A stretch of DNA of 32,000 nucleotides from Mycobacterium sp. 1081908.1 (lineage in GTDB: Bacteria; Actinomycetota; Actinomycetes; Mycobacteriales; Mycobacteriaceae): NCBI RefSeq assembly GCF_001673535.1, contig NZ_LZLY01000097.1, forward strand, positions 21,840 to 53,839, in the 5' to 3' direction. Below the pieces are notes generated by a model, which did not search any database, was not told the DNA's origin, and was given only the letters and a program-made list of their open reading frames with translations. Below are positions 835-32,000 of the stretch, one piece after another. How positions within the stretch are numbered: position 1 is the stretch's first letter; each line of letters starts with the position of its first letter. Both the position numbers and the translations under genes were made by a program.

Positions 835-1166
835 CGCTCACCAGCCCGAGAACGAGGCTGCTCGTGACTCAATGCCAAACTCCTCTACCGCTCGCCCGCG
901 CTAGTTTGCTTCCGTCCGCCGACGGCCGGGCCACGGCGTCCCAGCGAGGGCGTCGTCGCCGTTGGGCCACCCTACTCGGGATGCGCATTAGCGGCGAGCA
1001 TCTGCGCCGATATTCTTGCGCCGCGAATGTCGCGACGACCAGGAGAGCCACGTTATCACCTCTTCCTGAGAGGCCCGGCCGCGCCAGCGCGCCGCCGCTC
1101 TACAAATGCATAACAAGCAGTGGAAATGGGGTTCTCTTATCGAGCATATGGAGAGGAGCCAAGGCG

Positions 1167-2696: not shown

Positions 2697-3883
2697 ACCG
2701 TGACGAGCCGGCCGAGGTTTCCGCCCATGATCTTCGCCTGGTCGTCGACCGACAGGTGCGACAGTGCGTTGACGTAGAACGTCGGCTCCGCCAGCCCCTC
2801 CGGGTGCGGCCAGTCCGAGCCGTACAGCACCTGATCCACGCCGACGAGGTTGATCAGATCATCGATGCCGTCCTCGAAGAACGGGCTCACGTGGATCCGG
2901 TTCTTCACCATCTCGACCGGGTCGCTCGGGAACGCTTCCGGCGCCTTGCGGAAGACCTCGGTCAGGCCGTCCAGCAGCGGGGTCATCCACTTCGAACCGG
3001 CCTCGACGATCGCGACCTTCAGCTTCGGGTGGCGGTAGAGCGCACCATGAATCACCCACGAGCCCACCGCGTCCTGGATCGGGCGCCACTCGTTGAGGAT
3101 GCCCATCGCGTTGGTTTGGAACGGCAGCATCTCCTGTTCGGCGCCATCCCACTCCGAGGTGTACCGGGAGTAGCCGCTGTCGCTGGAATGCATGCCGACC
3201 AGCACGTCGTGCTCGACGACCCGCTCCCAGAACGGATCGAACTCGGGCAGCGCGAACGACCGCGGGCCGCGGAAGCCGGGGACGGGGGCCGGGCGGACCA
3301 GGATGCACCGGGCCCCACGCTTGACGGCCCACTCCAGTTCCTCGATCGCCTTTTCGACGATCGGCAGGGTGATGACCGGCGTGGTGAAGATCCGGTTCTG
3401 GTAGTTGAAGCCCCAGACATCATCGAGCCATTCGTTCAGCGCATGGATCAAGACGTGGATGGCGACCGGGTCGTCGCGCAGCCGTTCCTCGAGCAGGCTC
3501 GCCAGCGTCGGAAACATCAGGGTGCGGTCCAGCCCCAGCTCGTTCATCTTCTCCAGGCGCGGGCCGGGCTCAAAGAACGCCGGGATCGCGCGCATCGGCT
3601 CGCCGAACAGCTCGCGCTTGGTTTTGCCGTCCGGGTTGCCGTACTTGAAGTACTCCTCCCAGGCACCCGGCCTGGCGACGACCTCGAACGTCGGGTTGGG
3701 GATGTAGTTGCTGATGTGGCCACGGATCGCGATCTTGGTGCGCCCGTTGACCTGGACGTACTGGACATAGTCCTTGTACGCCTTGGGCAGGAACTTGGTC
3801 AGCGCCTCCGGTGGCTCGTAGAGGTGATTGTCCGCATCAAAGATCGGAAACGGGACGTCCTCCCGGTGTGACAACTGGCCCAT
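2693..3883 (-). CDS. Amidohydrolase-2 family metal-dependent hydrolase
   Basis: 396-aa ORF. N-terminal FDADNH and C-terminal LYGSDWPHPEG resemble the metal-ligand motifs of the TIM-barrel amidohydrolase-2 family. A strong SD (GAAGGAGG) lies 5 nt upstream of ATG 3883. The gene is 4-bp coupled to the downstream fadD-like gene. Confidence 0.85.
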   Translation of the reverse strand: MGQLSHREDVPFPIFDADNHLYEPPEALTKFLPKAYKDYVQYVQVNGRTKIAIRGHISNYIPNPTFEVVARPGAWEEYFKYGNPDGKTKRELFGEPMRAIPAFFEPGPRLEKMNELGLDRTLMFPTLASLLEERLRDDPVAIHVLIHALNEWLDDVWGFNYQNRIFTTPVITLPIVEKAIEELEWAVKRGARCILVRPAPVPGFRGPRSFALPEFDPFWERVVEHDVLVGMHSSDSGYSRYTSEWDGAEQEMLPFQTNAMGILNEWRPIQDAVGSWVIHGALYRHPKLKVAIVEAGSKWMTPLLDGLTEVFRKAPEAFPSDPVEMVKNRIHVSPFFEDGIDDLINLVGVDQVLYGSDWPHPEGLAEPTFYVNALSHLSVDDQAKIMGGNLGRLVTV

Positions 3884-3905: not shown

Positions 3906-3920
3906 GAGAATACTATTCTC
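3906..3920. promoter_or_regulatory. 15-bp palindrome GAGAATACTATTCTC, candidate operator upstream of the amidohydrolase-fadD operon
   Basis: Perfect 7-1-7 inverted repeat read directly from the sequence, centred 30 nt upstream of ATG 3883. On the gene strand it overlaps a TAGTAT (-10-like) hexamer. It shares the core GAAT-N3-ATTC with sites at 13679-13693 and 15174-15188. Confidence 0.45.
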
Positions 3921-3973
3921 TACCGACGCCCGTCCGCAACGTGCCCCCTGTCGGGGCGCGCGGTCCCGCGGGG

Positions 3974-4384
3974 TCAGCAGTTGGCGATGATCTTGAACGA
4001 GGCGGACGCCGGTTCGTTCGGCTTGTCCGTCTTGAAGCCGTTGGCCGTGCCCGTGATCGTGAATTTCTCGCCGCTCAGGCTCATGTCGGCGCTACCGCCG
4101 TCATCCTTCGAATACATGCCGGTGAAGCCGCCGAGATTTTGGATGCGCACCGATTGAGCGGTGAGTGGCTCCGCGCGTTGGTCGATGACGACCTTGGCCC
4201 CGGCGAAGTCGCCGCCGATGTCGATCGTCCGGTACCACTCCAACTGGTTGCACTTGACGACGTTGATCTTGGCGTCGTTTCCGTTGACGGTCACCGAGGC
4301 GGTGCTGGAGAGCTGCGTTTGCGCCTTGGGGCTGCAGGCGCCGAGGCCGGCGACAGCAAGCGCGGCGGCGACGACGACCACCAT
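3974..4384 (-). CDS. LpqH-family (19-kDa antigen-like) lipoprotein
   Basis: The track ORF is 3974..4495. I prefer ATG 4382-4384, which gives MVVVVAAALAVAGLGAC with an LGAC lipobox. The mature part (VTVNGNDAKINVVKCN...IDIGGDFAG...KFTITGTANG...FKIIANC) follows the LpqH pattern V.I.G......V.C....I.IGG......Y.ITGTA.G....F.I...C. Confidence 0.8.
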   Translation of the reverse strand: MVVVVAAALAVAGLGACSPKAQTQLSSTASVTVNGNDAKINVVKCNQLEWYRTIDIGGDFAGAKVVIDQRAEPLTAQSVRIQNLGGFTGMYSKDDGGSADMSLSGEKFTITGTANGFKTDKPNEPASASFKIIANC

Positions 4385-4506
4385 TCGGTTACCCACTGGG
4401 CCACCTCGATCCTGGATGACGAGCTTCTGGACCTGCTGCGATGATGTTATTCTCCCCGAAAGAGAATGCCAATATCGGCTTTTCGCCTTACCCAATTACT
4501 GGAGCG

Positions 4507-5259
4507 ATGCGCATGGTGGACCTGGAGTTCGATGACGGGCTTGCGGTGCTCACCATCGATCGCCCCCACGCGCGCAACGCCATCGCGCCGGACACCATGG
4601 GGCAGCTGGAAAAGGCGATCGACGCCGCGGCCGGCGCGCGAACCCTGGTCATCAAAGGCGCCGGCGATCGGGCGTTCGTCTCGGGCGGCGATCTCAAGGA
4701 GCTGAGCGCGCTTCGCACCGAAGAGGACGCCGCGGCAATGGCGAAACGGATGCGGTCCATCTGCGATCAGCTCGCCGCCTTCCCCGCCCCCGTCGTCGCC
4801 GCCCTGAACGGCCACGCCTTCGGCGGCGGCGCCGAAGTCGCCGTGGCCGCCGACATCCGGATCGCCGCCGACGACATCAAGATCGCCTTCAACCAGGTGG
4901 CCTTGGAGATCATGCCGGCCTGGGGCGGCGCCGAACGATTGGCCACGATCGTCGGAAAGAGCAAGGCGTTGCTGTTGGCCGGCACGGGAACCGCCCTCGA
5001 CGCCGCCGAAGCCGAGCGGATCGGCTTGGTGGATTTGGTGTTTCCGCGCGCCTCGTTCGACGAGGGCTGGCGATCGATAGCCACGTCGCTGGCCCGCCAC
5101 CCGGCGGCGGAGATAAAGCGGGTAATCAGCGGCGTTTCTCCCGACGAAGCGATAGCATCCTTTGCACGGCTGTGGGTTGCCGACGCCCACTGGCAGGCCG
5201 CAGAGCGGGTGATGAACCGCACCGCCAGTCCGCGCCCGGCAGCCGAAGGAGCGACATGA
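4507..5259 (+). CDS. Enoyl-CoA hydratase/isomerase (crotonase) family protein
   Basis: The track ORF is 4441..5259. I prefer ATG 4507 (MRMVDLEFDDGLAVLTIDRP) or ATG 4513, with GGAG at 4501-4504. Crotonase signatures are present: VIKGAGDRAFVSGGDLKE and ALNGHAFGGGAEVAVAADIRIAA. Confidence 0.85.
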   Translation: MRMVDLEFDDGLAVLTIDRPHARNAIAPDTMGQLEKAIDAAAGARTLVIKGAGDRAFVSGGDLKELSALRTEEDAAAMAKRMRSICDQLAAFPAPVVAALNGHAFGGGAEVAVAADIRIAADDIKIAFNQVALEIMPAWGGAERLATIVGKSKALLLAGTGTALDAAEAERIGLVDLVFPRASFDEGWRSIATSLARHPAAEIKRVISGVSPDEAIASFARLWVADAHWQAAERVMNRTASPRPAAEGAT

Positions 5260-5684
5260 TCAGCACCGCGAAAACACTGTTGGGCGTCGGCTCGGCGACG
5301 TTGCTGGGGCTGACGGGCCTGCTCGTTGGCCCCGGACGCGCACACGCCGACCCGGTCTGGCATCAGGTCGTGTACATCGTCTCGGCCAAGGTTCCGGCCT
5401 ACGTCGACATCTTCTACCAGGATCAGGACCCGACGCTGTTCTCCGACTACAGCCACAACAACTACGCGTTCACCCCGCAGGTGCACGCCGACGTCGCCCC
5501 GGGTAAGCCGTGGGTTCAGCCGGTGAACCTGTTGAACCCCGATCAGTGGGCGATGGTCACCGCGACCACCGGTCGTGAACCGCTGGCACAGGGCGGCATT
5601 CAGTGCGACCTGTCGGTGGACGGAAAGGTCGTGGTCTCCAACATCGGCCCCAAGGGCGCGCTCTGTTCGCTGCGAACCTGGTGA
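5256..5684 (+). CDS. MmpS-like exported/membrane-anchored protein
   Basis: ATG 5256 overlaps the hydratase stop (ATGA), with SD GAAGGA at 5245-5250. The N-terminal signal/anchor is MISTAKTLLGVGSATLLGLTGLLVGPGRAHA. The C-terminal IQCDLSVDGKVVVSNIGPKGALCSL resembles the MmpS pattern (C.I.VDG.V......A.C). Confidence 0.6.
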   Translation: MISTAKTLLGVGSATLLGLTGLLVGPGRAHADPVWHQVVYIVSAKVPAYVDIFYQDQDPTLFSDYSHNNYAFTPQVHADVAPGKPWVQPVNLLNPDQWAMVTATTGREPLAQGGIQCDLSVDGKVVVSNIGPKGALCSLRTW

Positions 5685-6301
5685 ACCACCCAGGCGGGAG
5701 GCACGTCCTCGATGGGCTGCGGCTCGCCTTCCAGCTGGCGCAGATAACTTTCGACCAGTTCTAAGGTTTCGGCGTGACCGCCGGAAATACCGACAGCCTG
5801 CTCGAGCACCAAAAACCGCGACAGGCTGGTCATCAGGACCGTCCAAACCACCGGCGGCATTTCGGCGCCGTCCACCCCGTAGCGCTGCAGCGCTGCGGCC
5901 ACAGCTCGGCGCTGTTCCTCGCGGAATCGTTCGGCGTAGTAAGCGATTTCGGCTCGCATCTCCTTGCGGTGGTTGGCCAGCGCCATGAATTCCATCGAGA
6001 TGCGGGTGAACGCGGGATCGGTGCCGAATCTCCACAGCGCCCACAACGGCTGAGGGCAGTCCAGCGCGCGAGCTTGCGCCTGAAGACCCTCCTCGGCCCG
6101 GCGGCGGAAGACCTCGAGGAAAAGCTCGTCCATGGTGCGGAAGTAGTAGTGCACCAGCTGTGGTTTCAAACCCGCCTTGCTCGCCAGCCGGCGCGAGGTC
6201 ACCGCGGCGTAGCCCTCTTCGATCATCAGCCGCTCGGCCGCGTCGAGCAGCAGGGCGCGATTCTTCGCGTCCGGCGCTCCGATCCTGCGGGCCGAAGTCA
6301 T
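5600..6301 (-). CDS. TetR-family transcriptional regulator
   Basis: The track ORF is 5600..6337. I prefer ATG 6299-6301 (MTSARRIG...). The N-terminal HTH is RALLLDAAERLMIEEGYAAVTSRRLASKAGLKPQLVHYYFRTMDELF. The gene is divergent from the P450 at 6487. Confidence 0.85.
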   Translation of the reverse strand: MTSARRIGAPDAKNRALLLDAAERLMIEEGYAAVTSRRLASKAGLKPQLVHYYFRTMDELFLEVFRRRAEEGLQAQARALDCPQPLWALWRFGTDPAFTRISMEFMALANHRKEMRAEIAYYAERFREEQRRAVAAALQRYGVDGAEMPPVVWTVLMTSLSRFLVLEQAVGISGGHAETLELVESYLRQLEGEPQPIEDVPPAWVVHQVRSEQSAPLGPMLETTTFPSTDRSH

Positions 6302-6389
6302 ATCCCTGCTCCGTATTTCTGCGTAGATGCCGACCACACGGATCGTATCGCGGCACGGCGTTGCGACCTTGACCCTGACAATACCGCCA

Positions 6390-6409
6390 TGCTAAGCAGG
6401 TGCTCAGCA
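6390..6409. promoter_or_regulatory. Tandem mini-palindromes TGCTAAGCA-GG-TGCTCAGCA in the TetR/P450 divergent region
   Basis: Two adjacent 4-1-4 palindromes (TGCTnAGCA) read directly from the sequence. They lie between TetR start 6301 and P450 start 6487. Confidence 0.3.
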
Positions 6410-6486
6410 CATTTTTTGACTTTCGGAATCGGGCGGCGGTGCCGCCGAACCCCACCGGTAGACCCAGCCCAGGGAGACGCAGTCCT

Positions 6487-7764
6487 ATGAGCAGCTTCGA
6501 CACGATCGACTTCTTCACCGATCAATCCCTGGTGCCCGATCCGCACCCGTACTTCGACTATCTGCGCGGCCAGAACCCGGTGCTGCGGCTGCCGCACCAC
6601 GAGGTCGTCGCCGTCACCGGCTACGAGGAGGCCAGCGAGGTCTACAAGGACCCCGACACGTTCTCGAACATCGTCGCGCTCGGCGGGCCGTTCCCGCCGC
6701 TGCCGTTCCAGCCCGAGGGCGACGACATCAGCCCCCAGATCGACCAGCACCGCAGTTACTTTCCGATGTTCGAGCACATGGTGACGATGGATCCCCCGGA
6801 GCACACCCGCGCGCGCTCGGTGCTGAGCAAGCTGCTGACCCCGAGCCGGCTGAAGCAGAACGAGGAGTTCATGTGGCGCCTCGCCGACCGTCAGCTCGAC
6901 GAGTTCCTGACCAACGGCGAGTGCGAATTCATCAGCGAGTACTCGAAACCGTTCGCCACCTTGGTGATCGCCGACCTGCTCGGCGTTCCCGAAGAGGACC
7001 ACAAGGAGTTCCGCGTCGTCCTCGGCGCCGATCGCCCCGAGGCGCGGGTGGGCGCGCTGGACCACGAGTCGGTCGGCATCAACCCGCTGGAGTGGCTCGA
7101 CGACAAGTTCTGCACCTACATCGAGGACCGGCGACGCGAACCGCGCAATGACGTCCTCACGTCGCTGGCGACGGCGAAGTACCCCGACGGGTCCACCCCC
7201 GAGGTCATCGAGGTAGTTCGTTCCGCCACATTCCTTTTCGCCGCCGGCCAGGAGACCACGGCCAAGCTGCTCAGCGCCGCGCTGCAGGTGATGGGCGAGC
7301 GGCCCGACTTACAGCAGCAGCTGCGCGACGACCGCAGCCTCATTCCGGGGTTCATCGAGGAATCGCTGCGGATGGACAGCCCCGTCAAGAGCGACTCGCG
7401 GCTGGCCCGCAGGGCCACCACGATCGGCGGCGTCGACATCCCCGCCGGCACCGTCGTCATGGTGTTGCCTGGCGCCGCCAACCGCGATCCGCGCCGGTTC
7501 GACAACCCGCACGAGTTCGACCTCCGCCGAAAGAATGTGCGCGAGCACATGGCGTTCGCGCGCGGGGTGCACTCGTGTCCGGGTGGGCCGCTCGCCCGGG
7601 TGGAGGGCCGCGTTTCCATCGAGCGCATCCTGGACCGGATGAGCGACATCAAGATCAACGAGGCGAAGCACGGCCCGGCCGACGACCGTCGCTACAGCTA
7701 TGAGCCGACGTACATTCTGCGCGGGCTCAGCGAACTCCACCTCACCTTCACGCCGAACGGGTAG
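6487..7764 (+). CDS. Cytochrome P450 monooxygenase
   Basis: The track ORF is 6400..7764. I prefer ATG 6487 (MSSFDTIDFF), preceded by AGGGAGA at 6471-6477. Signatures: heme-thiolate loop FARGVHSCPGGPLA, ExxR (EESLR) and I-helix FAAGQETT. Confidence 0.9.
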   Translation: MSSFDTIDFFTDQSLVPDPHPYFDYLRGQNPVLRLPHHEVVAVTGYEEASEVYKDPDTFSNIVALGGPFPPLPFQPEGDDISPQIDQHRSYFPMFEHMVTMDPPEHTRARSVLSKLLTPSRLKQNEEFMWRLADRQLDEFLTNGECEFISEYSKPFATLVIADLLGVPEEDHKEFRVVLGADRPEARVGALDHESVGINPLEWLDDKFCTYIEDRRREPRNDVLTSLATAKYPDGSTPEVIEVVRSATFLFAAGQETTAKLLSAALQVMGERPDLQQQLRDDRSLIPGFIEESLRMDSPVKSDSRLARRATTIGGVDIPAGTVVMVLPGAANRDPRRFDNPHEFDLRRKNVREHMAFARGVHSCPGGPLARVEGRVSIERILDRMSDIKINEAKHGPADDRRYSYEPTYILRGLSELHLTFTPNG

Positions 7765-7807
7765 GGGCGGTCCCGGGCGCAACCGCCGAGCCCAACCGGT
7801 GCGGACG

Positions 7808-9592
7808 TCAGGGTTGAGGTGCGGTTTCGATCTGCTCGAAGATCCCGGAGAACTCGAACGGGGTTTGCGCTATGCCGCTGCCGTCGACGGCGTCCACCGC
7901 GCCCAACGTGCCCGTGATGTCGCGGGGCAGTTCCCACATCGACAGCTCGCCGATGTCGTGCTGCTGGGCGAAAGCCGTCAGCTGTTGGGCGTCGGCGAGG
8001 CCGAAGATTTCGCTGGGATCGTCGTTGATTCCGATCAGCGGCGTCACCCCGAGCATGTGCCACGCCTGCTGGCTGGTCAGCGACGGATAGAGCGTCATCA
8101 GCTGGCTGTGGGTGGCCGTCGCGGCGTCGATCGCGTACGCGCCCATGCCCGGGTTGCCGGTCTGGTCGAAACCGTTGCCGTAGTCCATGGCCATGATGTT
8201 CACGCGAGATATGTTCACGCCGTTGGCCGTTGCGGTCTGGATGACGTTCAACCCGCCGCCCTGCCCCTCGACCAGGCCGCTCGGCAGCACCGGAAGCGTG
8301 TAGGACACCGTCACGGGCGTGCCGTTCGCCGCCTCCTGCTGCTGCAGGATCGCGATGGCCTTCGATTGGGTGGTCATCGCTTGAGTGTTGCCCTGCAGCG
8401 CACCTTCGACGTCGAAGTCGAGGTTGTAGATCTTGTAGGTGTTCACAATCGTCGCGTACTGCTGCGCCAGCGCGGTGGGTGTCTGACCGTTGACGGCGGA
8501 TAGGTCGGTGCCGAACGCGCCGCCAAACGAGATAGTCCCGTTAATGCCGGCGGCTTTCATGTTGGCGATCTGGTTGTCGATGAACGCGCTCTGGGAGCCG
8601 CCCGTCACGTCGTACGCCGAATAGCCGCCCCAGGAGGCCTGACCCGTCGGGTCGGCGTTGATGAAGGCAAGCGTGGCGTTCTTGACTCCGTGCTGGGCCG
8701 CCGTCGCAAAGTCATATCCGTTCGGCCCGGGCCAGAGCGTTATGTCGACGTAGGGCGAGTACTCCCCGGAACCCGTTCCGCCGGTGCCGGTTCCGGTGCC
8801 GGTGCCGGTCCCCGAACCGGTCCCGCCGAGGCTGGTGCCGTCGTGGCCCCTGCCGCCATTGGCGCCCGGATTGCCGAACATCGCCGAACCTTGGCCACCG
8901 GAGCCGCCCGCGCCGCCGACGCCGCCGACGGCCCCGCTGCCGCCGTCACCCCCGTTACCGCCCACGCCGCCATTGCCGTACAGCAGGCCGCCGCTACCGC
9001 CGGCGCCGCCGGTGCCCCCGGCGCCGCCGTTGATACCCGGGGAGCCGGCGGCACCGAGCGTGCCGGTCCCGCCGGTACCGCCCCGGCCGCCGTCGGCGAA
9101 CAGGCCGGCGTCGCCGCCCCGGCCGCCCGGCTTACCCGGAAGGCCGGACCCCCCGTTGCCACCGTTACCGGCCAGCAGCCCGCCGGGCCCGCCGTTCTGC
9201 CCGGGTGCCCCGTCGGCGCCGTCGCCGATCAGCGGGCGACCCAGCATCGCGTTCGTAGGCGCGTTGATCACGCCCAGCACGTCGGCCTCGAGGGCCTGCA
9301 AGGGCGACGCGTTGGCCGCCTCGGCGGCCGCATACGCGTTGCCCGCGCCGTTGAGCGCCTGCACGAACCGCCGGTTGAAGGTCGCCGCCCGGGCGTTCAG
9401 CGACTGATAGGCCCGGGCATAGGCGGAGAACAGCGACGCGATCGCGGCCGACACCTCATCGCCGGCGGCGGGCAGCACGGCGGTGGTTCCGACGGCCGCG
9501 AGCGCATGGGCCGCCGTAAGTGTCGAACCGATGCCTGCCAGCTCCGTGGCCGCCGCGGCCACTGTCGCCGGTGCGGCAATGAGAAACGTCAT
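7808..9592 (-). CDS. PE-PGRS family protein with C-terminal glycoside hydrolase family 18 (chitinase/lysozyme-like) domain
   Basis: 594-aa ORF. The PE domain is MTFLIAAPATVAAAATELAGIGSTL...YAAAE (YxxxE at aa 87-91). Gly-rich GGxGG repeats span aa ~123-256 and a Gly-Thr/Ser linker spans aa 257-276. GH18-type motifs follow: YSPYVDITLWP, YNLDFDVEG (nt 8405-8419 encode DFDVE) and NIMAMDYG. Confidence 0.85.
   Translation of the reverse strand: MTFLIAAPATVAAAATELAGIGSTLTAAHALAAVGTTAVLPAAGDEVSAAIASLFSAYARAYQSLNARAATFNRRFVQALNGAGNAYAAAEAANASPLQALEADVLGVINAPTNAMLGRPLIGDGADGAPGQNGGPGGLLAGNGGNGGSGLPGKPGGRGGDAGLFADGGRGGTGGTGTLGAAGSPGINGGAGGTGGAGGSGGLLYGNGGVGGNGGDGGSGAVGGVGGAGGSGGQGSAMFGNPGANGGRGHDGTSLGGTGSGTGTGTGTGTGGTGSGEYSPYVDITLWPGPNGYDFATAAQHGVKNATLAFINADPTGQASWGGYSAYDVTGGSQSAFIDNQIANMKAAGINGTISFGGAFGTDLSAVNGQTPTALAQQYATIVNTYKIYNLDFDVEGALQGNTQAMTTQSKAIAILQQQEAANGTPVTVSYTLPVLPSGLVEGQGGGLNVIQTATANGVNISRVNIMAMDYGNGFDQTGNPGMGAYAIDAATATHSQLMTLYPSLTSQQAWHMLGVTPLIGINDDPSEIFGLADAQQLTAFAQQHDIGELSMWELPRDITGTLGAVDAVDGSGIAQTPFEFSGIFEQIETAPQP
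8765..8824 (-). repeat. Imperfect hexanucleotide (GGTNCC)n tract encoding the Gly-Thr/Ser linker
   Basis: Five consecutive GGTNCC units at 8783-8812 on the plus strand (ggtgcc ggttcc ggtgcc ggtgcc ggtccc), with degenerate flanks. The tract encodes GTGSGTGTGTGTGTGGTGSG. Confidence 0.5.
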
Positions 9593-9762
9593 GGCGCCAC
9601 CCGCTTTGTCGGCGTATTACGAGATCTGGCAGATGCTATTGAGCGTGGACGAGACGCCAAAGACGCTGCCAGATAAACGTTATCCAACCGTTACGCAAGA
9701 CGTATATCTGCATGACACTACGCGTGTTGGCGTCCAGCGTGTTGACAATGGCGTCCGAAAAA

Positions 9763-10053
9763 CTAGGCGAGCGTCCTGCCGACGAAATAGCAGGCGAGCA
9801 ACGCGACGCCCATCAGCACAACCCAGGCGTCCGTCAGTCGACACAGCAGGGCGGGGGCTTGCCGCACCTCCATGAATTCCCGAAAGATGATGCGCACCTT
9901 GACGAGTGCGATCACGATCACGCTCGAGGTGACGACAGCGCTGGCCCTCAGCGTTCCGTCGAGCGAGTGATCGATCCATAGGTAGGCGAGCGTCAACGAC
10001 GCCAGCACGAGCCAGACGACCAGCAGTCTCCTGTTGAATTTGATGTCGATCAC
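9763..10053 (-). CDS. Small 3-TM membrane protein, prokaryotic cytochrome oxidase subunit IV (CyoD)-like
   Basis: GTG 10051-10053 overlaps the upstream stop (GTGA). The 96-aa product VIDIKFNRRLLVVWLVLASLTLAYLWI...VVTSSVIVIALVKVRIIF...AWVVLMGVALLACYFVG has three hydrophobic spans. Its size, topology and position after a subunit III-like gene fit the subunit IV family. The family call is tentative. Confidence 0.55.
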   Translation of the reverse strand: MIDIKFNRRLLVVWLVLASLTLAYLWIDHSLDGTLRASAVVTSSVIVIALVKVRIIFREFMEVRQAPALLCRLTDAWVVLMGVALLACYFVGRTLA

Positions 10054-10613
10054 CTCACCACGTACAACAACGCGAAGATGAGCACCCAGAGGAAGTCGAC
10101 GGTGTGCCAGTATGTGGCGCAGGTTTCCACGAGCTCCTGGGACCGCCGCAGTTGGTAGACGACGACGCCGAGGACGACGAAGCCGATCAAGAGGTGCACG
10201 AAGTGGATTCCGGTGAGGAAGAAGTAGTAGGTGAAGAAGTCGTTGCTGTCCAAGCCATTTCCCATGCGAACCAACCGGGCCCACTCGAACACCTTGAAAA
10301 ATAGGAACACTGCGGCCAGTGCGACCGTGATGAAGACGTCCCGCAGGGCCGCGCGGTAGGCGCCGGCGCGGGACGACTGAACGCAGCGCGCCACCGACCA
10401 CGAGCTCAGCAGCAAGACCAGGGTGTTGAAGACCCCGATACGCAGGTCCAGCTGCGCCTGCGAGTGCAAGAAGAGCTCGGGACTTCGGGCGCGATAGAAC
10501 AGGTAGAAGCCGAAATACCCTGTGAAGACCAGGGTCTCGAACAACACAAACGCCCACATGTCGGGCTGGCCGGGCACGAACCTGGCGCTCTTCTTCTCGG
10601 CCAGGTCGGTCAT
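10050..10613 (-). CDS. Heme-copper oxidase subunit III-like (CoxIII/CyoC/NorE-like) membrane protein
   Basis: ATG 10611-10613 overlaps the upstream stop (ATGA). The 187-aa product carries subunit III hallmarks FFTYYFFLTGIHFVHLLIGFVVLG and TYWHTVDFLWVLIFALLYV, and has five hydrophobic spans. Confidence 0.8.
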   Translation of the reverse strand: MTDLAEKKSARFVPGQPDMWAFVLFETLVFTGYFGFYLFYRARSPELFLHSQAQLDLRIGVFNTLVLLLSSWSVARCVQSSRAGAYRAALRDVFITVALAAVFLFFKVFEWARLVRMGNGLDSNDFFTYYFFLTGIHFVHLLIGFVVLGVVVYQLRRSQELVETCATYWHTVDFLWVLIFALLYVVR

Positions 10614-11425
10614 CGCGCAACGGCCTTCCGCGGCGCGCGCTCGGGCAACGGCCCGTCGCCGAAGTCCTCGCGCTGGATCATCCGAAACAGCATGACGATG
10701 AAAGTGACTTGGTAGACGCCGAACACCACCATGTCCAGCCACCACGCGATCTGACCGTTCCACGCCAGCACGCCACGCCGGAAGATCCAGCACGGCGCCA
10801 CGACGACCTCGGTCAGGGCGTTGCACAGGTTGAGGTAGCCGAACCACTTGGGGAACACCCGATTCTTGTCGAGCAGAATCGCGAGCATCCAGATCAGCGA
10901 GCCGATCAGGAAGACTCCCATGGTTCCGTCGAAAGACAGGAAAGCGAAGTCGTAGAGCCAGCCGATCGCTTCGGGGTCTCGCTCTTCTCGCAGCGTCCCG
11001 ACGACCAGCGCGATGTTGAGCAGCAGCATCCCGGGAACCGCACTGAACGAGTAGATAAGCAGATACGAGTATCCGAAGGCGCGGCTGACCGACATTCGCC
11101 GCATCGAATAAGCGATGAGGGCGTTGTTGGTCGCGATCATGCCGCTGATGGCGAAGATGACACCGAATCCAACGGGAATCCCGAGGTGGCGTTCATGGAA
11201 CCAGTGCACCTGCGTCGCGAGGTCCCACGTCGGCTGCGGCGGCGGCTGTACCTGCGCCACGATGAAGAACACCGGGAAGAAGAAGTTGTAGAAGACGACC
11301 AGCGCCGCCCACGCCAGCCAGAGCTCGCGCCTGGGGTCGCGCCGCAGGTGCCAGGCGATCCGGTGGTGCAGCGGTCCCGGGGGCGGCGTGGCTGGAGAAA
11401 CCGCCTGCGCCGCTACGGCACTCAC
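10610..11425 (-). CDS. Polytopic membrane protein, paralog B (function unknown)
   Basis: GTG 11423-11425 overlaps the upstream stop (GTGA). The 271-aa product has multiple TM spans. It aligns by eye with paralog A (MRRMS.SRAFGY / RRMAHRTPIFSY; RDPE / RSPE; VFPKWFGYLNL / VFGRWVAHFNL; AWNG / AWDG; ...RE C-terminus). Confidence 0.7.
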   Translation of the reverse strand: MSAVAAQAVSPATPPPGPLHHRIAWHLRRDPRRELWLAWAALVVFYNFFFPVFFIVAQVQPPPQPTWDLATQVHWFHERHLGIPVGFGVIFAISGMIATNNALIAYSMRRMSVSRAFGYSYLLIYSFSAVPGMLLLNIALVVGTLREERDPEAIGWLYDFAFLSFDGTMGVFLIGSLIWMLAILLDKNRVFPKWFGYLNLCNALTEVVVAPCWIFRRGVLAWNGQIAWWLDMVVFGVYQVTFIVMLFRMIQREDFGDGPLPERAPRKAVAR

Positions 11426-12207
11426 GCGCTTACCAGTTCGTCGCCGTGCTGACGGTTCTCGGCGCGCTCCCGGTAGATCGCTTGCCCCAGAACCAAACCC
11501 ATCACGATGATCCAGACGGCGATGGCGACGTTTTTCACCCAGAACGACAAAAAGCCGTCCCACGCCAGCGGTCCGGTCAATGACACGCCGACGAAGGCGG
11601 CGGGCACCAGGGCGGCCGCCACCAAAAGGTTGAAGTGAGCCACCCAGCGGCCGAATACCGGCCGCGGCTGGTCGTCGAAATAGATTGCCAGGGCCAGGAT
11701 CACGCTTTGGCCGATCAGAAACGGGACCACGATGGTGAACGTGATCCAGCCGAAGTCGTTGAGCAGCTGCGTCAGCTCCGGGCTTCTTTCGGGACGGAAG
11801 GCGGCCAGCAGCCAGCACACGTTGGCGACGAGGAACAGGGTCGGGCCGCCGGCCACGCAACCCAACATCGCGTAGGAGAAGATCGGCGTCCGATGTGCCA
11901 TCCTGCGGATCTGCAACACGATCAGGGTCAGGACCGGGACCAGGCAGACCCCGAACCAATTGAAAACGATCATGCTGTAGCGGATCTGTGGCAGCCGCGC
12001 CGGATCGCGATAGAACGCGGCCACCTGATCGGCCGACATGCTGGGCGACATCGGCGGATTGAAGCCCGGAAACAGGACAAAGCAGGCGACCCAGATGATC
12101 ACCGTCGCGGGCAACGTCCACAGCAGGATCAGCTCACCGTCGGTACGGCGCAATCGAGTTCGCGGAGATCGGCGGCGCTTTGGGTTGTTCTCGCCAACGT
12201 CGGACAT
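11422..12207 (-). CDS. Polytopic membrane protein, paralog A (function unknown)
   Basis: The track ORF is 11422..12240. I prefer ATG 12205-12207 (MSDVGENNPKRRR), preceded by GAAGGAG with a 7-nt spacer. The 261-aa hydrophobic protein is the first gene of a four-gene overlapping operon. Confidence 0.7.
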   Translation of the reverse strand: MSDVGENNPKRRRSPRTRLRRTDGELILLWTLPATVIIWVACFVLFPGFNPPMSPSMSADQVAAFYRDPARLPQIRYSMIVFNWFGVCLVPVLTLIVLQIRRMAHRTPIFSYAMLGCVAGGPTLFLVANVCWLLAAFRPERSPELTQLLNDFGWITFTIVVPFLIGQSVILALAIYFDDQPRPVFGRWVAHFNLLVAAALVPAAFVGVSLTGPLAWDGFLSFWVKNVAIAVWIIVMGLVLGQAIYRERAENRQHGDELVSA

Positions 12208-12256
12208 CGCCTGGCTCCTTCGCTGCGACGGCCTGGACACGGTTCGTGAGCGAAAC

Positions 12257-12296
12257 TAGCCGAACGGCTATCCTCGGGTCAATAGCCGATCGGCTA
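12257..12296. promoter_or_regulatory. Twin palindromic operators TAGCCGAACGGCTA and TAGCCGATCGGCTA
   Basis: Two copies of the TAGCCG-N2-CGGCTA inverted repeat, at 12257-12270 and 12283-12296 (the second is a perfect 14-bp palindrome), with centres 26 bp apart. They lie in the 100-bp divergent region between the membrane operon (start 12207) and the TetR (start 12308). Confidence 0.55.
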
Positions 12297-12307
12297 CGCT
12301 TCCGGGT

Positions 12308-12889
12308 GTGGTTTCCCCGCAGACCCGCAGCCGGTTTCGCTTCATCACGCGCAGTGCCGCGCAGACCCGCATTCTCGATGCGGCGCTGCAGTTGATCGCG
12401 CAGCACGGCGTCGGCGGAACCTCGCTGCAGATGATCGCCGATGCCGTCGGGGTCACGAAGGCCGCCGTGTACCACCAGTTCAAGACCAAGGAGCAGATCG
12501 TCCTCGCCTTGACCGAGCGGGAACTCGGCGGTCTCGAGGAGGCCCTGGAGGCGGCCGAGGCCGACGACCATCGGACCAGGGCGCGGGAGGCGCTGCTCGA
12601 CAGGGTCATCGACGTCGCCGTCGAACGTCGCGGCGCCGCAAGCACGCTGCAATTCGACCCTGTCATCGTGCGACTGCTGGGCGAACACGAGCCCTTCCAG
12701 CAATTCATCCAGCGGCTCTACAGCGTGCTGCTCGACGACGCGGCCGAGGACGCGCGGGTGTCGGCGGCCGTGCTGTCGGGCGCGATCGCGGTCGGGGTCA
12801 TCTCGCCTCTGGTGGCCGACATCGACGACGACGCCCTGCGTTCCCAGCTGGGCCGCATCACCCGCCGGCTGATCGACGCGGCCGACTGA
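12308..12889 (+). CDS. TetR-family transcriptional regulator
   Basis: 193-aa ORF with a GTG start. HTH: RILDAALQLIAQHGVGGTSLQMIADAVGVTKAAVYHQFKTKEQI. The gene is divergent from the membrane operon. Confidence 0.85.
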   Translation: MVSPQTRSRFRFITRSAAQTRILDAALQLIAQHGVGGTSLQMIADAVGVTKAAVYHQFKTKEQIVLALTERELGGLEEALEAAEADDHRTRAREALLDRVIDVAVERRGAASTLQFDPVIVRLLGEHEPFQQFIQRLYSVLLDDAAEDARVSAAVLSGAIAVGVISPLVADIDDDALRSQLGRITRRLIDAAD

Positions 12890-12950
12890 TCACCGCACCC
12901 CCACCGAAATTTTTGGTCCGGTTGGGCGGTCGCTCGGGTACGGTTCTCCC

Positions 12951-13226
12951 ATGAGCAAAGTCGCGCGTGTCGCCGCCGCAGCGATCATGGTCACCGCCGG
13001 CTTGGGCACCGCGACGGTCGCCCGCGCCGACAATCCGCCGTGGCCGTTCGTGGGCTATCACTGGTGCCCGGGGCAGATGTTCGATCCCTCCTGGGGACCC
13101 CAGTGGGATCCGACCACCTGCCACGACGCGCACCATCGGGACGTGGACGGCACGGTCCACAACTTCGACTACTGGGGACCCAGCCCGTTCCAGGACTGGC
13201 CGGAGATTCCGAACACCCGGCCGTGA
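12951..13226 (+). CDS. Small exported Trp/Pro/His-rich protein (function unknown)
   Basis: 91-aa ORF with G/C-rich third codon positions. The signal peptide MSKVARVAAAAIMVTAGLGTATVARA is followed by DNPPWPFVGYHWCPGQMFDPSWGPQWDPTTCHDAHHRD... No clear SD was seen. Confidence 0.55.
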   Translation: MSKVARVAAAAIMVTAGLGTATVARADNPPWPFVGYHWCPGQMFDPSWGPQWDPTTCHDAHHRDVDGTVHNFDYWGPSPFQDWPEIPNTRP

Positions 13227-13242
13227 GTCGGGCCGGAGCGGC

Positions 13243-13647
13243 CTAAGTGTCGCCGCGCTCCCAAACCTGTGTTCCGTCATGCGCGTTGCAGACGAGGAAC
13301 AGGCCGTCCGGCGCCTGCGCGACGTAGTACTCCGGGAAATCGACGCAAGACGAGCCCTCGACCTTGACGCCGGCCATCGGGGGGGACCGGAACCACCGGG
13401 GCTCGTACCTCCTGGGCGAGCCGCAGAACATCAGGCGTCCCGGCTGCGTAGCGAAAGACACGTAATAGTCGGCGGTTCCGAACACGTAATACGTGGTGTT
13501 GTCGCACGGCGCACCGAGCACCTGGTGCGGCATGATCCCCGGCGTGCAATCCGGGTAATCGCAATTAACCGGCGCGGCGGCGGCCTGCGGCGGCGCCAAG
13601 ACACCGAGGCCGAGCAACACGGCAAGCGTTGCCATTATGAATCGCAC
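13243..13647 (-). CDS. Exported Cys-rich protein (function unknown)
   Basis: 134-aa ORF. The signal peptide MRFIMATLAVLLGLGVLAPPQAAA is followed by a mature part with 6 Cys (PVNCDYPDCTPG...APCDN...FCGSP...SSCVDF...LVCNAHDG). Confidence 0.65.
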   Translation of the reverse strand: MRFIMATLAVLLGLGVLAPPQAAAAPVNCDYPDCTPGIMPHQVLGAPCDNTTYYVFGTADYYVSFATQPGRLMFCGSPRRYEPRWFRSPPMAGVKVEGSSCVDFPEYYVAQAPDGLFLVCNAHDGTQVWERGDT

Positions 13648-13678
13648 AGGATTACTTTAAATTACTTCGCCCACCGGT

Positions 13679-13693
13679 GGGAATAGAATTCTC
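13679..13693. promoter_or_regulatory. GGGAATAGAATTCTC, second copy of the GnGAAT-N3-ATTCnC motif
   Basis: Read directly from the sequence. It is centred 39 nt upstream of start 13647 (minus-strand exported protein) and 114 nt upstream of start 13800. It abuts the perfect 12-bp palindrome CCCACCGGTGGG (13670-13681). Confidence 0.4.
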
Positions 13694-13799
13694 GCGCCCG
13701 GAGAAGATGGGCGCCTGATGCCGCTGTCTCCGTCGCCGGCCCGCCCACCTGGCAGTGATAATGTGGCTCTCCTGTAGGCGCGGACGAGGAGGTGATCCA

Positions 13800-14543
13800 G
13801 TGCCTCGGCGCAAGCTTCCCGCTGGGGCGACCGTCGCCGAAAATCGACGAATGGGTGCCCTATCCACGTCACCGTCGACTTCGGCCGCGGAGGATGCCGA
13901 GGCCGCAGAAGTCGCGGAGGCGGAGGCCCGCGCCGCGGCCGCCCGTGCCCGTGCCATGCGGTTGCGCGAACAGGCCGAGGCGGCGCCAAGCGGCGACGGG
14001 GCCGCCGGCGCCGGATCGGCCGAGTCGCCATCGCGCTGGCGCCGGTTGCGGCCCCGCCGCCCAAGCCGGAAGGCGATGGCCGCGGCCGCGGCGGTTGTGG
14101 TCGGCTGCGCGGCGCTGGCGGGCAGCGGGTACCTGGTGTGGCATCACCGCGGCGTTGAGCAGGAAAGGCATCGCAGCTCGGAGTTCGCCGCGGCCGCCCG
14201 CGACGCCATTGTGACGATGATGACGATCGATCCGGCCAAGGCGAGAGAGGATCTGCAGCGTTTCGCCGACGACACCACCGGGACTTTCAAAATCAGCATC
14301 CTGATGGGCGGTGAGGATGCGGTAAAGGCGGTGGAGGAGTCCAAGGTCATCTCCAAGGGCTCGGTACAGGCCGTCGCCGTGGAGTCCATGAGCCAGGATT
14401 CGGCGATCGTGCTGATCGCCGCCAAATCCGAGATCACCAAACCCGGTGAGGCTAAGCCGGAATCGCGCCGGTTGCGGATCGTCGTCACCGTCCAACGCGA
14501 TGCCGGGCAGCTAAAGATTTCCCGACTCGAGTTCGTCCCGTGA
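13800..14543 (+). CDS. Mce-associated membrane protein (Mas-like)
   Basis: The track ORF is 13755..14543. I prefer GTG 13800, preceded by GAGGAGG at 13786-13792. The Ala/Glu-rich N-terminus (AEDAEAAEVAEAEARAAAARARAMRLREQAEA) is followed by a basic stretch and a TM (AAAAAVVVGCAALAGSGYLVW), then EFAAAARDAIVTMMTIDPAKARED... The protein is a paralog of the 1-834 product. Confidence 0.8.
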   Translation: MPRRKLPAGATVAENRRMGALSTSPSTSAAEDAEAAEVAEAEARAAAARARAMRLREQAEAAPSGDGAAGAGSAESPSRWRRLRPRRPSRKAMAAAAAVVVGCAALAGSGYLVWHHRGVEQERHRSSEFAAAARDAIVTMMTIDPAKAREDLQRFADDTTGTFKISILMGGEDAVKAVEESKVISKGSVQAVAVESMSQDSAIVLIAAKSEITKPGEAKPESRRLRIVVTVQRDAGQLKISRLEFVP

Positions 14544-15115
14544 CGGTCGACGGCGCAGCGCACGATGAGGCGGCCGAGGAGCGGACGCCTGCCCGCCGAA
14601 CCGGCGCGATCGGGCGCTGGACGCGTCGTTGCGTGGCGCGGTGGCGCCCAATCCTGTTGACTGTTCTGCTTATTGCCGCGCTCGGCAACGCGGCCCGGAT
14701 CTTCTACTTCGATTACCGTCCGGATTTGCAGACCGACCGCGCCGCGGCGCACCAGGTCATCCGAGCGGCCAGCGACGGCGCGGTGGCGTTGCTGTCCTAC
14801 TCGCCCGAAACTCTCGATCGTGATTTCGCCAACGCCAAATCCCGGCTCACCGAGGACTATCTGGCCTACTACCAACGGTTCGCCGACCAGGTCGTGGGGC
14901 CGTCGGCGCAGCGCGGCCAAGTCACGACGACCGCCTCCGTGGTCAAGGCCGCCGTGTCGGAACTGCAGGCGAATTCCGCTGTCGTACTTGTGTTCATAAA
15001 ACAGAAGACCACGAGCAAGGCAAAGCCGGAACCGGTCGTGACGTCGAGCAGCCTGAAGGTAGCGATGGAAAAGGTCAAAGGTTCATGGCTCATCGATAAA
15101 TTCGATGTCCTATGA
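14540..15115 (+). CDS. Mce-associated membrane protein (Mas-like), second of pair
   Basis: 191-aa ORF. GTG 14540 overlaps the upstream stop (GTGA). An N-terminal TM (ILLTVLLIAALGNAARIFYF) is followed by AAAHQVIRAASDGAVALLSYSPETLDRDFANAKSRLTEDY..., typical of the family. Confidence 0.8.
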   Translation: MTVDGAAHDEAAEERTPARRTGAIGRWTRRCVARWRPILLTVLLIAALGNAARIFYFDYRPDLQTDRAAAHQVIRAASDGAVALLSYSPETLDRDFANAKSRLTEDYLAYYQRFADQVVGPSAQRGQVTTTASVVKAAVSELQANSAVVLVFIKQKTTSKAKPEPVVTSSSLKVAMEKVKGSWLIDKFDVL

Positions 15116-15173
15116 GCGCCCCGGCAGGCTTCGCGGCAAACCATTCCGTGACACGCGGGGGCGGTGTTAGTCT

Positions 15174-15188
15174 GTGAATTCGATTCGC
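15174..15188. promoter_or_regulatory. GTGAATTCGATTCGC, third copy of the GnGAAT-N3-ATTCnC motif
   Basis: Read directly from the sequence. It is centred 46 nt upstream of ATG 15227. Confidence 0.4.
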
Positions 15189-15226
15189 TTGGAATTGGCG
15201 GTATTTAACGCCTCAAGGAGCACACG

Positions 15227-15742
15227 ATGCGTCCGATGAATATGGCGATAAGCGCAACCGTGGTGGCCGTCGGCGTGGCGGGCGGTGTGGGCGTGGCCCC
15301 GTCCGCATGGGCCTACGACCCCTCGATCAATGGGACATACACCGCGACCGTGGTCGGCGACTGGGCCCGCACGAACGAGGTGTTCCATCAGGAGCCGGTG
15401 GTGCGCAGCACCTGGACCATCACGACTTCGTGCTCCACTGCCTACCGGTGCGACGGCACGGTCGTCAGCGACCAAGGCTGGACCGCACCGATATTCATGA
15501 ACGAGGGCACCACCTGGTTCGTCAAACGCGACATTCCCAATTGGACAACCTGTCCCGACGGCACCTCGTTCACCGGTCACGACGTCATCCACTTCTATGC
15601 CGCCAACCCGGAGACCGGCGAGAAAGTGCTTGGGTCGCCGGTGCTGGCCGGGCGGGAACAGACGTCCGGCCCCAGCGGCGCCTGCGGCACCAACAAGCCG
15701 CTGTACATCGATCAACCGTTCAGGCTGGACAAAATAGGCTGA
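15227..15742 (+). CDS. Exported protein (function unknown)
   Basis: 171-aa ORF with SD AAGGAG at 15215-15220, 6 nt before the ATG. The signal peptide MRPMNMAISATVVAVGVAGGVGVAPSAWA is followed by a mature domain with 4 Cys (INGTYTATVVGDWARTN...). Confidence 0.7.
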   Translation: MRPMNMAISATVVAVGVAGGVGVAPSAWAYDPSINGTYTATVVGDWARTNEVFHQEPVVRSTWTITTSCSTAYRCDGTVVSDQGWTAPIFMNEGTTWFVKRDIPNWTTCPDGTSFTGHDVIHFYAANPETGEKVLGSPVLAGREQTSGPSGACGTNKPLYIDQPFRLDKIG

Positions 15743-25423: not shown

Positions 25424-25625
25424 CGGCCTCAGTCCCTTCCAACATTTTCGAGACCGATGGTCTTGTTCCGCCGAATGACAGGCTGTAGATTTGGCTGGAC
25501 CGACGGCCACAAACGCGAGCTACCACAGTCGAAATGCGTTGCGGACAGCCGCATTCCGGCATTCGCCTCGGTGCGACAGCCACTACCATCCTCACGCCAC
25601 TCCTCCGTTCTGTCGCGTGAGTTGG

Positions 25626-25659
25626 CGCTTCAAAACGAGGGGCCTCGTGTCTTGAAGCG
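25626..25659 (-). terminator. Composite GC-rich hairpin between the CoA-transferase and yrbEA (possible factor-independent terminator or leader structure)
   Basis: Outer 8-bp arms are CGCTTCAA/TTGAAGCG and inner 6-bp arms are ACGAGG/CCTCGT. On the transcribed (minus) strand the inner stem is followed by TTTTG. The hairpin lies 127 nt downstream of stop 25786 and about 200 nt upstream of yrbEA start 25423. Confidence 0.3.
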
Positions 25660-25785
25660 TCCGGCGATTATGACTCATGCGGTGTCCGGGCGGAATGGAA
25701 AATTCAAAACCGTTATCGGACAGCTCATCGGATGAAAAGCGGCGTTCGGCTCACACATTTCACACAGCTCCAGTCCCTGTAGTCC

Positions 25786-28534: not shown

Positions 28535-28549
28535 GAAAATTTCATTCTC
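28535..28549. promoter_or_regulatory. Near-match to the GnGAAT-N3-ATTCnC motif (gene strand: GAGAATGAAATTTTC)
   Basis: One core mismatch (ATTT for ATTC). It is centred 37 nt upstream of ALDH start 28505, the same geometry as the perfect copies. It is weak on its own, because one-mismatch cores also occur inside coding DNA. Confidence 0.25.
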
Positions 28550-28786
28550 TTCCCCGGCGAATCTTACATTCGGGTCTCGATAATTCAAGAAAGTCTCAGG
28601 AATGGGACCGGGCCGCCGACCAGCGGCGTTATTGAGCGTGTGTTGCGGTAGTGGGCCTCTCGGCGCAGGCCGTGCGCGGTTTCGCGGCCATGTTGCACGC
28701 CGCTTCGCGCCGAGAGTAAGGTTCTCATAATTGTAAGGGAGATTCTTTGTGACTGAGATGGCCGCATTTGGAGACGAGGCCTCGAC

Positions 28787-31995: not shown

Positions 31996-32000
31996 CGCTT

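Follow-up and report, generated by a model that had tools for sequence, protein, structure and literature searches.

A conserved GAGAAT-N3-ATTCTC promoter palindrome in Mycobacterium sp. 1081908.1, the probable operator of a TetR-family repressor of a catabolic gene cluster

A 32,000-nucleotide stretch of Mycobacterium sp. 1081908.1 (contig NZ_LZLY01000097.1, positions 21,840 to 53,839; hereafter the window), a non-tuberculous relative of the M. avium complex, carries the palindrome GAGAAT-N3-ATTCTC in promoters of genes that flank a mce operon. We consider it likely that this palindrome is the operator of an autoregulated, homodimeric repressor belonging to one TetR clade, here labelled TetR-S, which is encoded outside the window and governs a conserved catabolic gene cluster of a lipid- or steroid-like kind. 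The palindrome is deeply conserved, overlaps predicted core promoter elements, and co-occurs with TetR-S genes in other actinobacteria, where it also lies in the promoter of TetR-S itself. From this pattern we infer binding and repression at the sites, relief by a ligand, and the presence of a TetR-S ortholog in this Mycobacterium.

Palindromic sites in the window

The gene map of the window was assembled from the GC content of third codon positions (GC3), Pfam and NCBIfam, and the features are collected in Table 1. An exhaustive scan of both strands of the window recovered the GAAT-N3-ATTC core at 3908, 13681 and 15176 (sites 1, 2 and 3) and zero further copies, which bears out the original prediction that these were the sole perfect cores. 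All three are intergenic, lying outside the genes assigned by GC3 and Pfam, and their centres are 30, 39 and 46 nt from the starts at 3883 (minus), 13647 (minus) and 15227 (plus), as had been read from the sequence. The claim that such a pattern is improbable by chance also stands, since 100 dinucleotide-preserving shuffles gave a mean of 0.12 cores and a maximum of 2, and none reached the three observed. Other spacers of 0-11 nt between GAAT and ATTC never gave more than two matches in the window, where intergenic DNA has a lower GC of 0.57-0.64. The consensus had been given as GnGAAT/ATTCnC; its core was right, but the n positions are actually A and T, giving GAGAAT/ATTCTC. Beyond the perfect core the claimed exclusivity fails, related sites having been missed between the divergent LpqH and enoyl-CoA hydratase (ECH) genes (4440 and 4462) and upstream of the aldehyde dehydrogenase (ALDH; 28535, site 4) and short-chain dehydrogenase/reductase (SDR; 28712) genes.

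These sites were scored with a position weight matrix (PWM) whose 54 distinct input sites are all linked to TetR-S and include no sequence of the window or of any mycobacterium; with it, the best score in simulated sequences had a median of 11.6 bits and a 95th percentile of 17.6 bits. The nine best PWM matches in the window are all intergenic, with site 1 at the top and site 4 second (Table 1). A composite element, GnGAAT-N3-ATTCTC-N7-GnGAA, equals two 15-bp operators 22 bp apart from centre to centre; at a threshold of at least 13/15 it was found at five window sites (site 1, site 2 with 15/15, LpqH/ECH in both orientations with 13/15, and site 4 with 14/15) against a simulated mean of 0.02.

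Conservation and promoter context of the sites

Site 1 precedes the operon of an Amidohydro_2 protein and a FadD3-family acyl-CoA ligase. We collected 80 loci from 80 species anchored on the amidohydrolase (at least 96% protein identity, 1.53 Mb) and aligned the upstream regions by their start codons, making no use of the motif. Site 1 was present upstream of the amidohydrolase in 80/80 loci (matches of at least 9/10), and all 79 aligned upstreams, each of them distinct, read GAGAAT-Ann-ATTCTC. A GTTGCG block is kept in most of the 79, the 13 nt between block and palindrome are free, and so is the DNA beyond the block. On the gene strand the centre is invariably TAnnAT, 18 nt after TTGCG and with A always as the first spacer base, so that the palindrome embeds a -10 hexamer; this promoter assignment is our own reading and falls below the threshold of the promoter scanner. 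M. marinum, E740, Nocardia, Saccharomonospora and Streptomyces keep the site at a closely similar offset, GAGAAT beginning about 37 nt before the ATG, and the protein itself is 96-99% identical over the 80 Mycobacterium species and about 70% identical to those of Nocardia and Streptomyces.

When half-sites were counted over the 80 loci, the inverted arrangement GAGAA-N5-TTCTC occurred 81 times and the everted arrangement TTCTC-N7-GAGAA 125 times; every remaining spacing from 0 to 15 gave at most 4 copies, barring inverted N15, whose 9 copies all lie upstream of LpqH and are a by-product of the sites in that region. Among mycobacterial promoters the PWM reached at least 17.6 bits in 80/81 amidohydrolase promoters, and at least 13 bits in 55/58 LpqH promoters and in 43/54 promoters of unk134, a small exported Cys-rich protein. 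Matches of at least 13 bits were absent from the promoters of sec171, a Rv2253-type secreted protein (0/32), of the two TetR genes of the window, TetR-A (0/78) and TetR-B (0/48), and of the cytochrome P450 next to TetR-A (0/85). The expectation that all three sites would be conserved at orthologous promoters was thus met in full at site 1 and in part at site 2, and failed at site 3.

The LpqH/ECH promoter core consists of two half-degenerate operators whose perfect inner half-sites form the everted dyad ATTCTC-N7-GAGAAT (4449-4467). The block CGATATTGGCATTCTC-N7-GAGAATAaCATC is kept in about 55/58 loci with its 7-nt core free, within a wider element CGATATTGGC-ATTCTC-N7-GAGAAT-AACATCATCG. The scanner placed the LpqH promoter at TTGGCA/17/TAACAT (4472-4444, minus), so that the dyad fills the spacer between -35 and -10. 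The dyad persists in species that lack LpqH, as well as in M. marinum, Nocardia and Saccharomonospora; Nocardia retains the divergent pair of ECH and amidohydrolase, and M. marinum shows full synteny with both elements, site 1 and the everted dyad, kept.

Site 2 lies between unk134 and two genes for Mce-associated-membrane-protein-like (Mas-like) proteins and contains a -10-like TAGAAT on the plus strand that reads towards the latter. It reaches 17.6 bits in 15/54 orthologs, and its full palindrome is confined to the subclade of the window, most species having TCTTCTCC-N6-GAGAATTTTCTTTTC instead. Site 4 is supported by Saccharomonospora, which has two PWM matches in its own SDR/ALDH divergent region; an SDR gene divergent from the ALDH and CoA-transferase genes is an arrangement common to the window and Saccharomonospora. 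Site 3, by contrast with its perfect core, scores at background (11.5 bits against the random median best of 11.6; composite 11/15), and outside the window it recurs only in L029 and L041, the closest relatives, a 1-nt insertion breaking the copy in L076. It is probably not a functional member of the set, or at best a weak, lineage-specific one.

Association with the TetR-S clade

TetR-S is our label for an unnamed TetR clade (prototype L087:11863-12546; also P0151 and, in Nocardia, P0434) with 75-95% identity across Streptomyces, Actinomadura and Actinocorallia. In Streptomyces a perfect palindrome, GAGAATGTTATTCTC (L087:12638), lies in the divergent promoter between TetR-S and an operon of acyl-CoA dehydrogenases (ACADs), and in Nocardia the TetR-S homolog, whose gene shares a cluster with site 1 at a distance of 13 kb, has a perfect palindrome, GAGAATTAGATTCTC (L174:7941), 46 nt before its start. 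A metagenome scan anchored on TetR-S gave 80 loci (440 kb, 67.5% GC) with 79 perfect palindromes and zero at any other spacer. A site lies 105-125 nt upstream of the TetR-S start in 42/76 loci (41 perfect, one 11/12), and a site matching at least 11/12 bases lies just past the TetR-S stop codon in 39/77. The three central bases in these loci are nearly free, with A, C, G and T roughly even. The genes downstream of these sites are TetR-S itself, ACADs, a thioesterase, an SDR, an amidohydrolase, a P450 and an AMP-ligase. No NCBIfam equivalog was reached by TetR-S: KstR gave 20-21 bits (P0434 included) against a cut-off of 280, MftR 23.7 against 224.9, and FasR at most 36.8 against 330; MftR and FasR are further TetRs that are conserved in actinobacteria and located close to such clusters.

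Mycofactocin genes (mftA/B/C) were also seen within the TetR-S-regulated cluster, at 519-2185 in the Streptomyces locus L087 and at 13632-15200 in the Nocardia locus L174, which hints that the pathway uses mycofactocin-dependent oxidoreductases.

Proposed mode of repression

The element has the form expected of a TetR operator: a palindrome of about 15 bp with invariant arms fits a homodimer with two helix-turn-helix motifs; it overlaps predicted core promoter elements at site 1, where the -10 lies inside it, and at LpqH, where the dyad lies in the spacer; and it stands in the promoter of the cognate TetR in Streptomyces, Nocardia and the metagenomic loci. A repressor bound over the -10 (site 1) or within the -35/-10 spacer (LpqH/ECH) would occlude RNA polymerase, and a metabolite of the pathway, plausibly a CoA thioester formed by the FadD3-family ligase, may release it, by analogy with KstR and KstR2. 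In the window the predicted regulon would comprise the operon of the Amidohydro_2 protein and FadD3-like ligase, which probably continues into Mas-like genes, together with LpqH, ECH, the divergent pair of unk134 and Mas-like genes, and the ALDH and SDR operons. Where two operators stand 22 bp apart, at LpqH/ECH, site 2 and site 4, two dimers might sit on one face of the DNA, but the idea is speculative, given how scarce everted copies are around TetR-S (3 in 440 kb). The single dimeric regulator proposed in the original prediction holds in so far as the palindrome is a genuine cis-regulatory element, is placed in promoter cores as a dimeric repressor would require, and is shared by a lipid-activation operon and genes for exported or envelope proteins, but the sites are not equivalent.

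Several points weigh against a TetR-S repressor at the sites in the window. The evidence for it is comparative throughout, and the scarcity of everted sites just described does not favour the paired dimers at LpqH/ECH. Part of the conservation is promoter constraint, as the central TAnnAT is also required by the -10. No TetR-S homolog was found in the window or within 10 kb on either side of 83 mycobacterial loci, cluster look-ups named only Streptomyces, Frankia, Nocardia and Gordonia, and neither the 50% representatives nor a Nocardia-seeded search gave a named Mycobacterium member. Finally, TetR-A is encoded close to the operon, a few kb away, in 78/80 loci as well as in M. marinum and E740 (7.4 kb upstream in the latter).

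Alternative explanations

The last point bears on the alternative that the factor is one of the two TetRs encoded in the window, as had been suggested at the outset. TetR-A, always beside the cluster in Mycobacterium, would be the better candidate, and TetR-B lies about 0.8 kb from site 2; nevertheless we regard either as an unlikely source of the factor, since a distinct palindrome is conserved for each of them and GAGAAT sites are absent from both promoters. The intergenic region between TetR-A and the gene for the P450 (a CYP150A6 ortholog) carries TGCTgAGCA-cc-TGCTtAGCA, kept in 73 loci, and the TetR-B promoter carries TAGCCGATCGGCTA, invariant in 48/48 loci, while many loci with sites 1 and 2 lack TetR-B altogether. 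The same operator occurs in clusters of Nocardia, Saccharomonospora and Streptomyces that have neither TetR-A nor TetR-B but do have an autoregulated TetR-S, and beyond the generic fold TetR-S is not significantly similar to either of them (E = 3 for TetR-A, E = 0.04 for TetR-B); that Streptomyces and Mycobacterium maintain an identical 12-base specificity speaks for an ortholog as the factor. A search of the unassigned stretches of the window, and of the DNA to the left of it, revealed no further regulator gene. The Mce-type regulator that had been offered as the other candidate is not indicated either, as the yrbEA/mce promoter region (25511-25800) contains zero PWM or composite matches, and the predicted regulon does not include the mce operon.

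A slightly less probable explanation is that no dedicated regulator exists and that GAGAA-TAnnAT-TCTC is simply core-promoter architecture, an extended -10 with a discriminator, in which the palindrome is incidental. TAnnAT does occur in the same register at site 1, at LpqH (TAACAT) and at site 2 (TAGAAT), and the A that always opens the spacer would fit this explanation. Both arms, however, are invariant and exactly symmetric, whereas RNA polymerase makes asymmetric contacts; the half-sites of LpqH/ECH occupy the spacer between -35 and -10 rather than the -10 itself; and with the centre nearly free in TetR-S loci many sites there cannot be -10 hexamers, yet their arms remain fixed. The motif is, moreover, restricted to a single gene cluster and to the promoter of a single clade of regulators.

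It is very improbable that the three-site pattern is a coincidence of AT-rich promoter DNA with no common function. The lower GC of intergenic DNA and the unconserved, background-scoring site 3 agree with it, but the number of cores against the shuffles, the conservation and the independently derived PWM rule out chance at sites 1 and 2 and at LpqH/ECH. Coincidence is refuted for sites 1, 2, 4 and LpqH/ECH, and for site 3 alone it is the most likely explanation. Least probable of all is a role at the RNA level, in which the palindromes would form the hairpins of an attenuator, a terminator or a small RNA. The LpqH/ECH dyad does fold somewhat better than shuffles (z = -2.2), but sites 1 and 4 fold no better (z = +0.9 and +2.1), the stems have 5-6 A/U-rich pairs, and there were zero Rfam matches and no terminator-like sites. 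The palindromes, moreover, coincide with the predicted -10 or precede it, and would hence stay untranscribed from those promoters.

Gene map and neighbouring features

Table 1. Operator-like sites, promoter elements and genes of the window
Feature	Position	Strand	Sequence or product	PWM (bits)	Remarks
Weak candidate site	1122-1136		GGAAATGGGGTTCTC	12.9	Tentative; between fadD and downstream Mas-like gene
FadD3-family acyl-CoA ligase	1167-2696	-			NCBIfam equivalog, 750 bits against cut-off 657
Amidohydro_2 protein	2693-3883	-			Pfam
Site 1	3906-3920		GAGAATACTATTCTC	23.6	Perfect operator; gene strand GAGAA-TAGTAT-TCTC; top match in window
-10 hexamer inside site 1	3910-3915
-35-like element, amidohydrolase promoter	3934-3939	-	TTGCGG		18 nt upstream of embedded -10
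LpqH	3974-4384	-	LpqH-type 19-kDa lipoprotein		Pfam Myco_19_kDa; lipobox signal MVVVVAAALAVAGLGAC in translation
LpqH/ECH promoter core	4440-4476				Two half-degenerate operators
LpqH/ECH, first operator	4440-4454		GATGATGTTATTCTC	14.8
LpqH/ECH, second operator	4462-4476		GAGAATGCCAATATC	13.4
ECH	4507-5259	+	Enoyl-CoA hydratase		Pfam ECH_1; start read from sequence; divergent from LpqH
TetR-A	5600-6337	-			Divergent from CYP150A6 ortholog
TetR-B	12308-12889	+
unk134	13243-13647	-	Small exported Cys-rich protein		Translation; synteny in loci
Site 2	13679-13706	+	GGGAATAGAATTCTC, then N7 and GAGAAG	19.3
Mas-like genes	13755-14543, 14540-15115	+	Two Mce-associated-membrane-protein-like proteins		Translations; synteny in loci
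Match near annotated mas262 start	13757			13.4
Site 3	15174-15188		GTGAATTCGATTCGC	11.5	Perfect core
sec171	15227-15742	+	Rv2253-type secreted protein
mce operon	25510 to 15776	-
Family III CoA-transferase	25786-26991				Downstream of ALDH; called on Logan contig, missed by GC3 filter
ALDH	26988-28505	-			Pfam
Site 4	28535-28562	+	GAAAATTTCATTCTC (9/10), then N7 and GCGAAT	21.4	Centre 37 nt upstream of ALDH start (28505, -); second in window
Weaker site	28712-28726		GAGAGTAAGGTTCTC	17.0	Upstream of SDR gene (28787, +); near random 95th percentile (17.6)
SDR	28787-29488	+			Pfam; divergent from ALDH
SDR, second SDR, ferredoxin, P450	28787-31995	+
Second SDR	29512-30387				Called on Logan contig, missed by GC3 filter

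Some details supplement Table 1. At the position in E740 equivalent to the weak candidate at 1122 there is a 17.4-bit site, 42 nt upstream of the Mas-like gene that follows fadD. The only distant structural relatives of the Amidohydro_2 protein with known roles, PtmU3 and DitZ, act on CoA-linked terpenoid-type substrates. Among its best 120 homologs there was no M. tuberculosis ortholog, and the protein of Mycolicibacterium peregrinum (P0101, 75% identity), which has another gene context and lacks the motif, is probably a paralog. The TGTGA that flanks sites 1 and 3 was considered as a CRP-like element and rejected, given the odd-centred symmetry and the unconserved flank. The true start of LpqH lies at about 4384-4396 rather than at 4495. 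In five loci (L044, L057, L060, L074 and L078) the sec171 homolog is preceded by cggTTGCGGCG-TTCTC-N7-GAGAA-TAACACcgg, an everted dyad like that of LpqH/ECH; the weak site 3 of the window differs from it.

Upstream of the CYP150A6 ortholog, tandem 9-bp palindromes at about 6383-6402, TGCTAAGCA-gg-TGCTCAGCA, are found also in M. marinum and E740 and overlap a promoter-like arrangement for the P450, TTGACC/18/TAAGCA; they are probably the operator of TetR-A. Alignment to PDB 6dcd places the true start of this P450 at about 6487 rather than 6400. In M. marinum (L083, 4438-4452) a 15-bit match, GAGAATCCCATTTCC, lies 44 nt upstream of CYP150A6; neither the corresponding stretch of the window nor any of the other 85 P450 promoters has it. 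The palindromes TAGCCGAaCGGCTA (12257-12270) and TAGCCGAtCGGCTA (12283-12296), between TetR-B and a divergent conserved gene (11422-12240), are probably TetR-B's own operator.

The region 7808-9592 encodes a PE-PGRS protein with a weak C-terminal match to glycosyl hydrolase 18 (E = 7e-7; 29.7 bits against a curated cut-off of 29.6), and a PE-PGRS gene is lacking here in most related loci. Between it and the conserved gene at 11422-12240 lies a 1.8-kb segment (9593-11421; GC about 0.62, AT skew +0.24) that gave no convincing open reading frame and no Pfam match. At the right end of the window the order SDR-ferredoxin-P450 equals the gene order that in Nocardia leads on to TetR-S. Independent assemblies end within about 40 nt past the P450 stop (37 nt) at the right edge of the window (31995-32000, and the end of L175), which suggests a repeat or another assembly-breaking element directly downstream of the P450.

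Significance

We propose, tentatively, that GAGAAT-N3-ATTCTC and TetR-S may define a previously unrecognised, KstR-like regulon across the Actinobacteria, serving an uncharacterised pathway for steroid-, terpenoid- or lipid-like CoA thioesters, into which slow-growing mycobacteria have recruited envelope proteins. If so, the regulon would cover Mycobacterium, Nocardia, Gordonia, Saccharomonospora, Streptomyces, Actinomadura and Frankia; its pathway set would be the FadD3-family ligase, Amidohydro_2, ECH, ALDH, CoA-transferase, P450 and ferredoxin, ChsH2/thiolase and ACADs, often with mycofactocin genes adjoining; and the recruited envelope set would be the 19-kDa lipoprotein antigen, the Mce-associated membrane proteins and the small secreted Cys-rich proteins. 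Catabolism of the substrate would then be coupled to Mce-linked uptake and to the expression of surface antigens. The operators of KstR and KstR2 defined cholesterol catabolism in mycobacteria, and a third operator of KstR-like quality, with 12 invariant bases and a fixed spacing from Mycobacterium to Streptomyces, would delimit another catabolic regulon. The sites further suggest that, in non-tuberculous mycobacteria, the 19-kDa lipoprotein paralog and the Mce-associated proteins are induced jointly with a pathway of lipid degradation. As regards annotation, it would be natural, but is probably wrong, to assume that neighbouring TetRs control these promoters.

Comparison with known systems

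Literature searches found no publication of the GAGAAT-N3-ATTCTC consensus, the mycobacterial matches to GAGAAT/ATTCTC being primers only. Nocardioides simplex has a motif named Lcin1, TCCCGGTSACCGGGA, which is different. Of the regulators of mce operons, Mce1R and Mce2R belong to the GntR family and Mce3R to the TetR family. The present sites resemble those of an mce regulator in that they flank a mce operon and precede Mce-associated-protein-like genes, but the motif also accompanies the catabolic cluster in genera and loci where no mce operon is adjacent. With TetR/tetO the element shares a 15-bp palindrome with a central base pair, overlap with the promoter and, in Streptomyces and Nocardia, a regulator that is often divergent from its target, and the tandem operators, perhaps holding two dimers, recall QacR. 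The regulon here, however, is spread over several loci rather than serving a single efflux gene, and in Mycobacterium the regulator does not adjoin the studied sites.

The closest parallels are KstR (Rv3574) and KstR2 (Rv3557c), autoregulated TetR-family repressors of mycobacteria and Rhodococcus whose short palindromic operators lie over promoters for steroid and lipid catabolism; both are conserved across actinobacteria and are relieved by CoA-thioester intermediates of the pathway. KstR2 controls fadD3, and the ligase in the window likewise belongs to the FadD3-family equivalog. The operators of KstR (TnnAACnnGTTnnA) and KstR2 (AnCAAGnnCTTGnT) both have even spacing, whereas GAGAAT-N3-ATTCTC has an odd centre, and where site 1 reads AAT-N3-ATT the KstR consensus reads AAC-N2-GTT. 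The gene content also differs, the genes here being for Amidohydro_2, ALDH, Mas-like proteins and LpqH. Membership in either regulon was rejected, as the operator differs and TetR-S scores far below the KstR equivalog cut-off. A further relative is KstR3 of Mycolicibacterium neoaurum (Mn_4965), a TetR repressor of an operon for a steroid side-chain sub-pathway that lies away from the main sterol cluster and encodes a thiolase-like aldolase (atf1), a DUF35 protein (chsH4) and an ACAD-type protein (chsE6) (PMC10398937). Its operon is matched here by the ChsH2/thiolase and ACAD genes beside the Nocardia TetR-S and by a PWM match in the ChsH2 region of E740, and it is possible, as a lead only, that TetR-S is KstR3.

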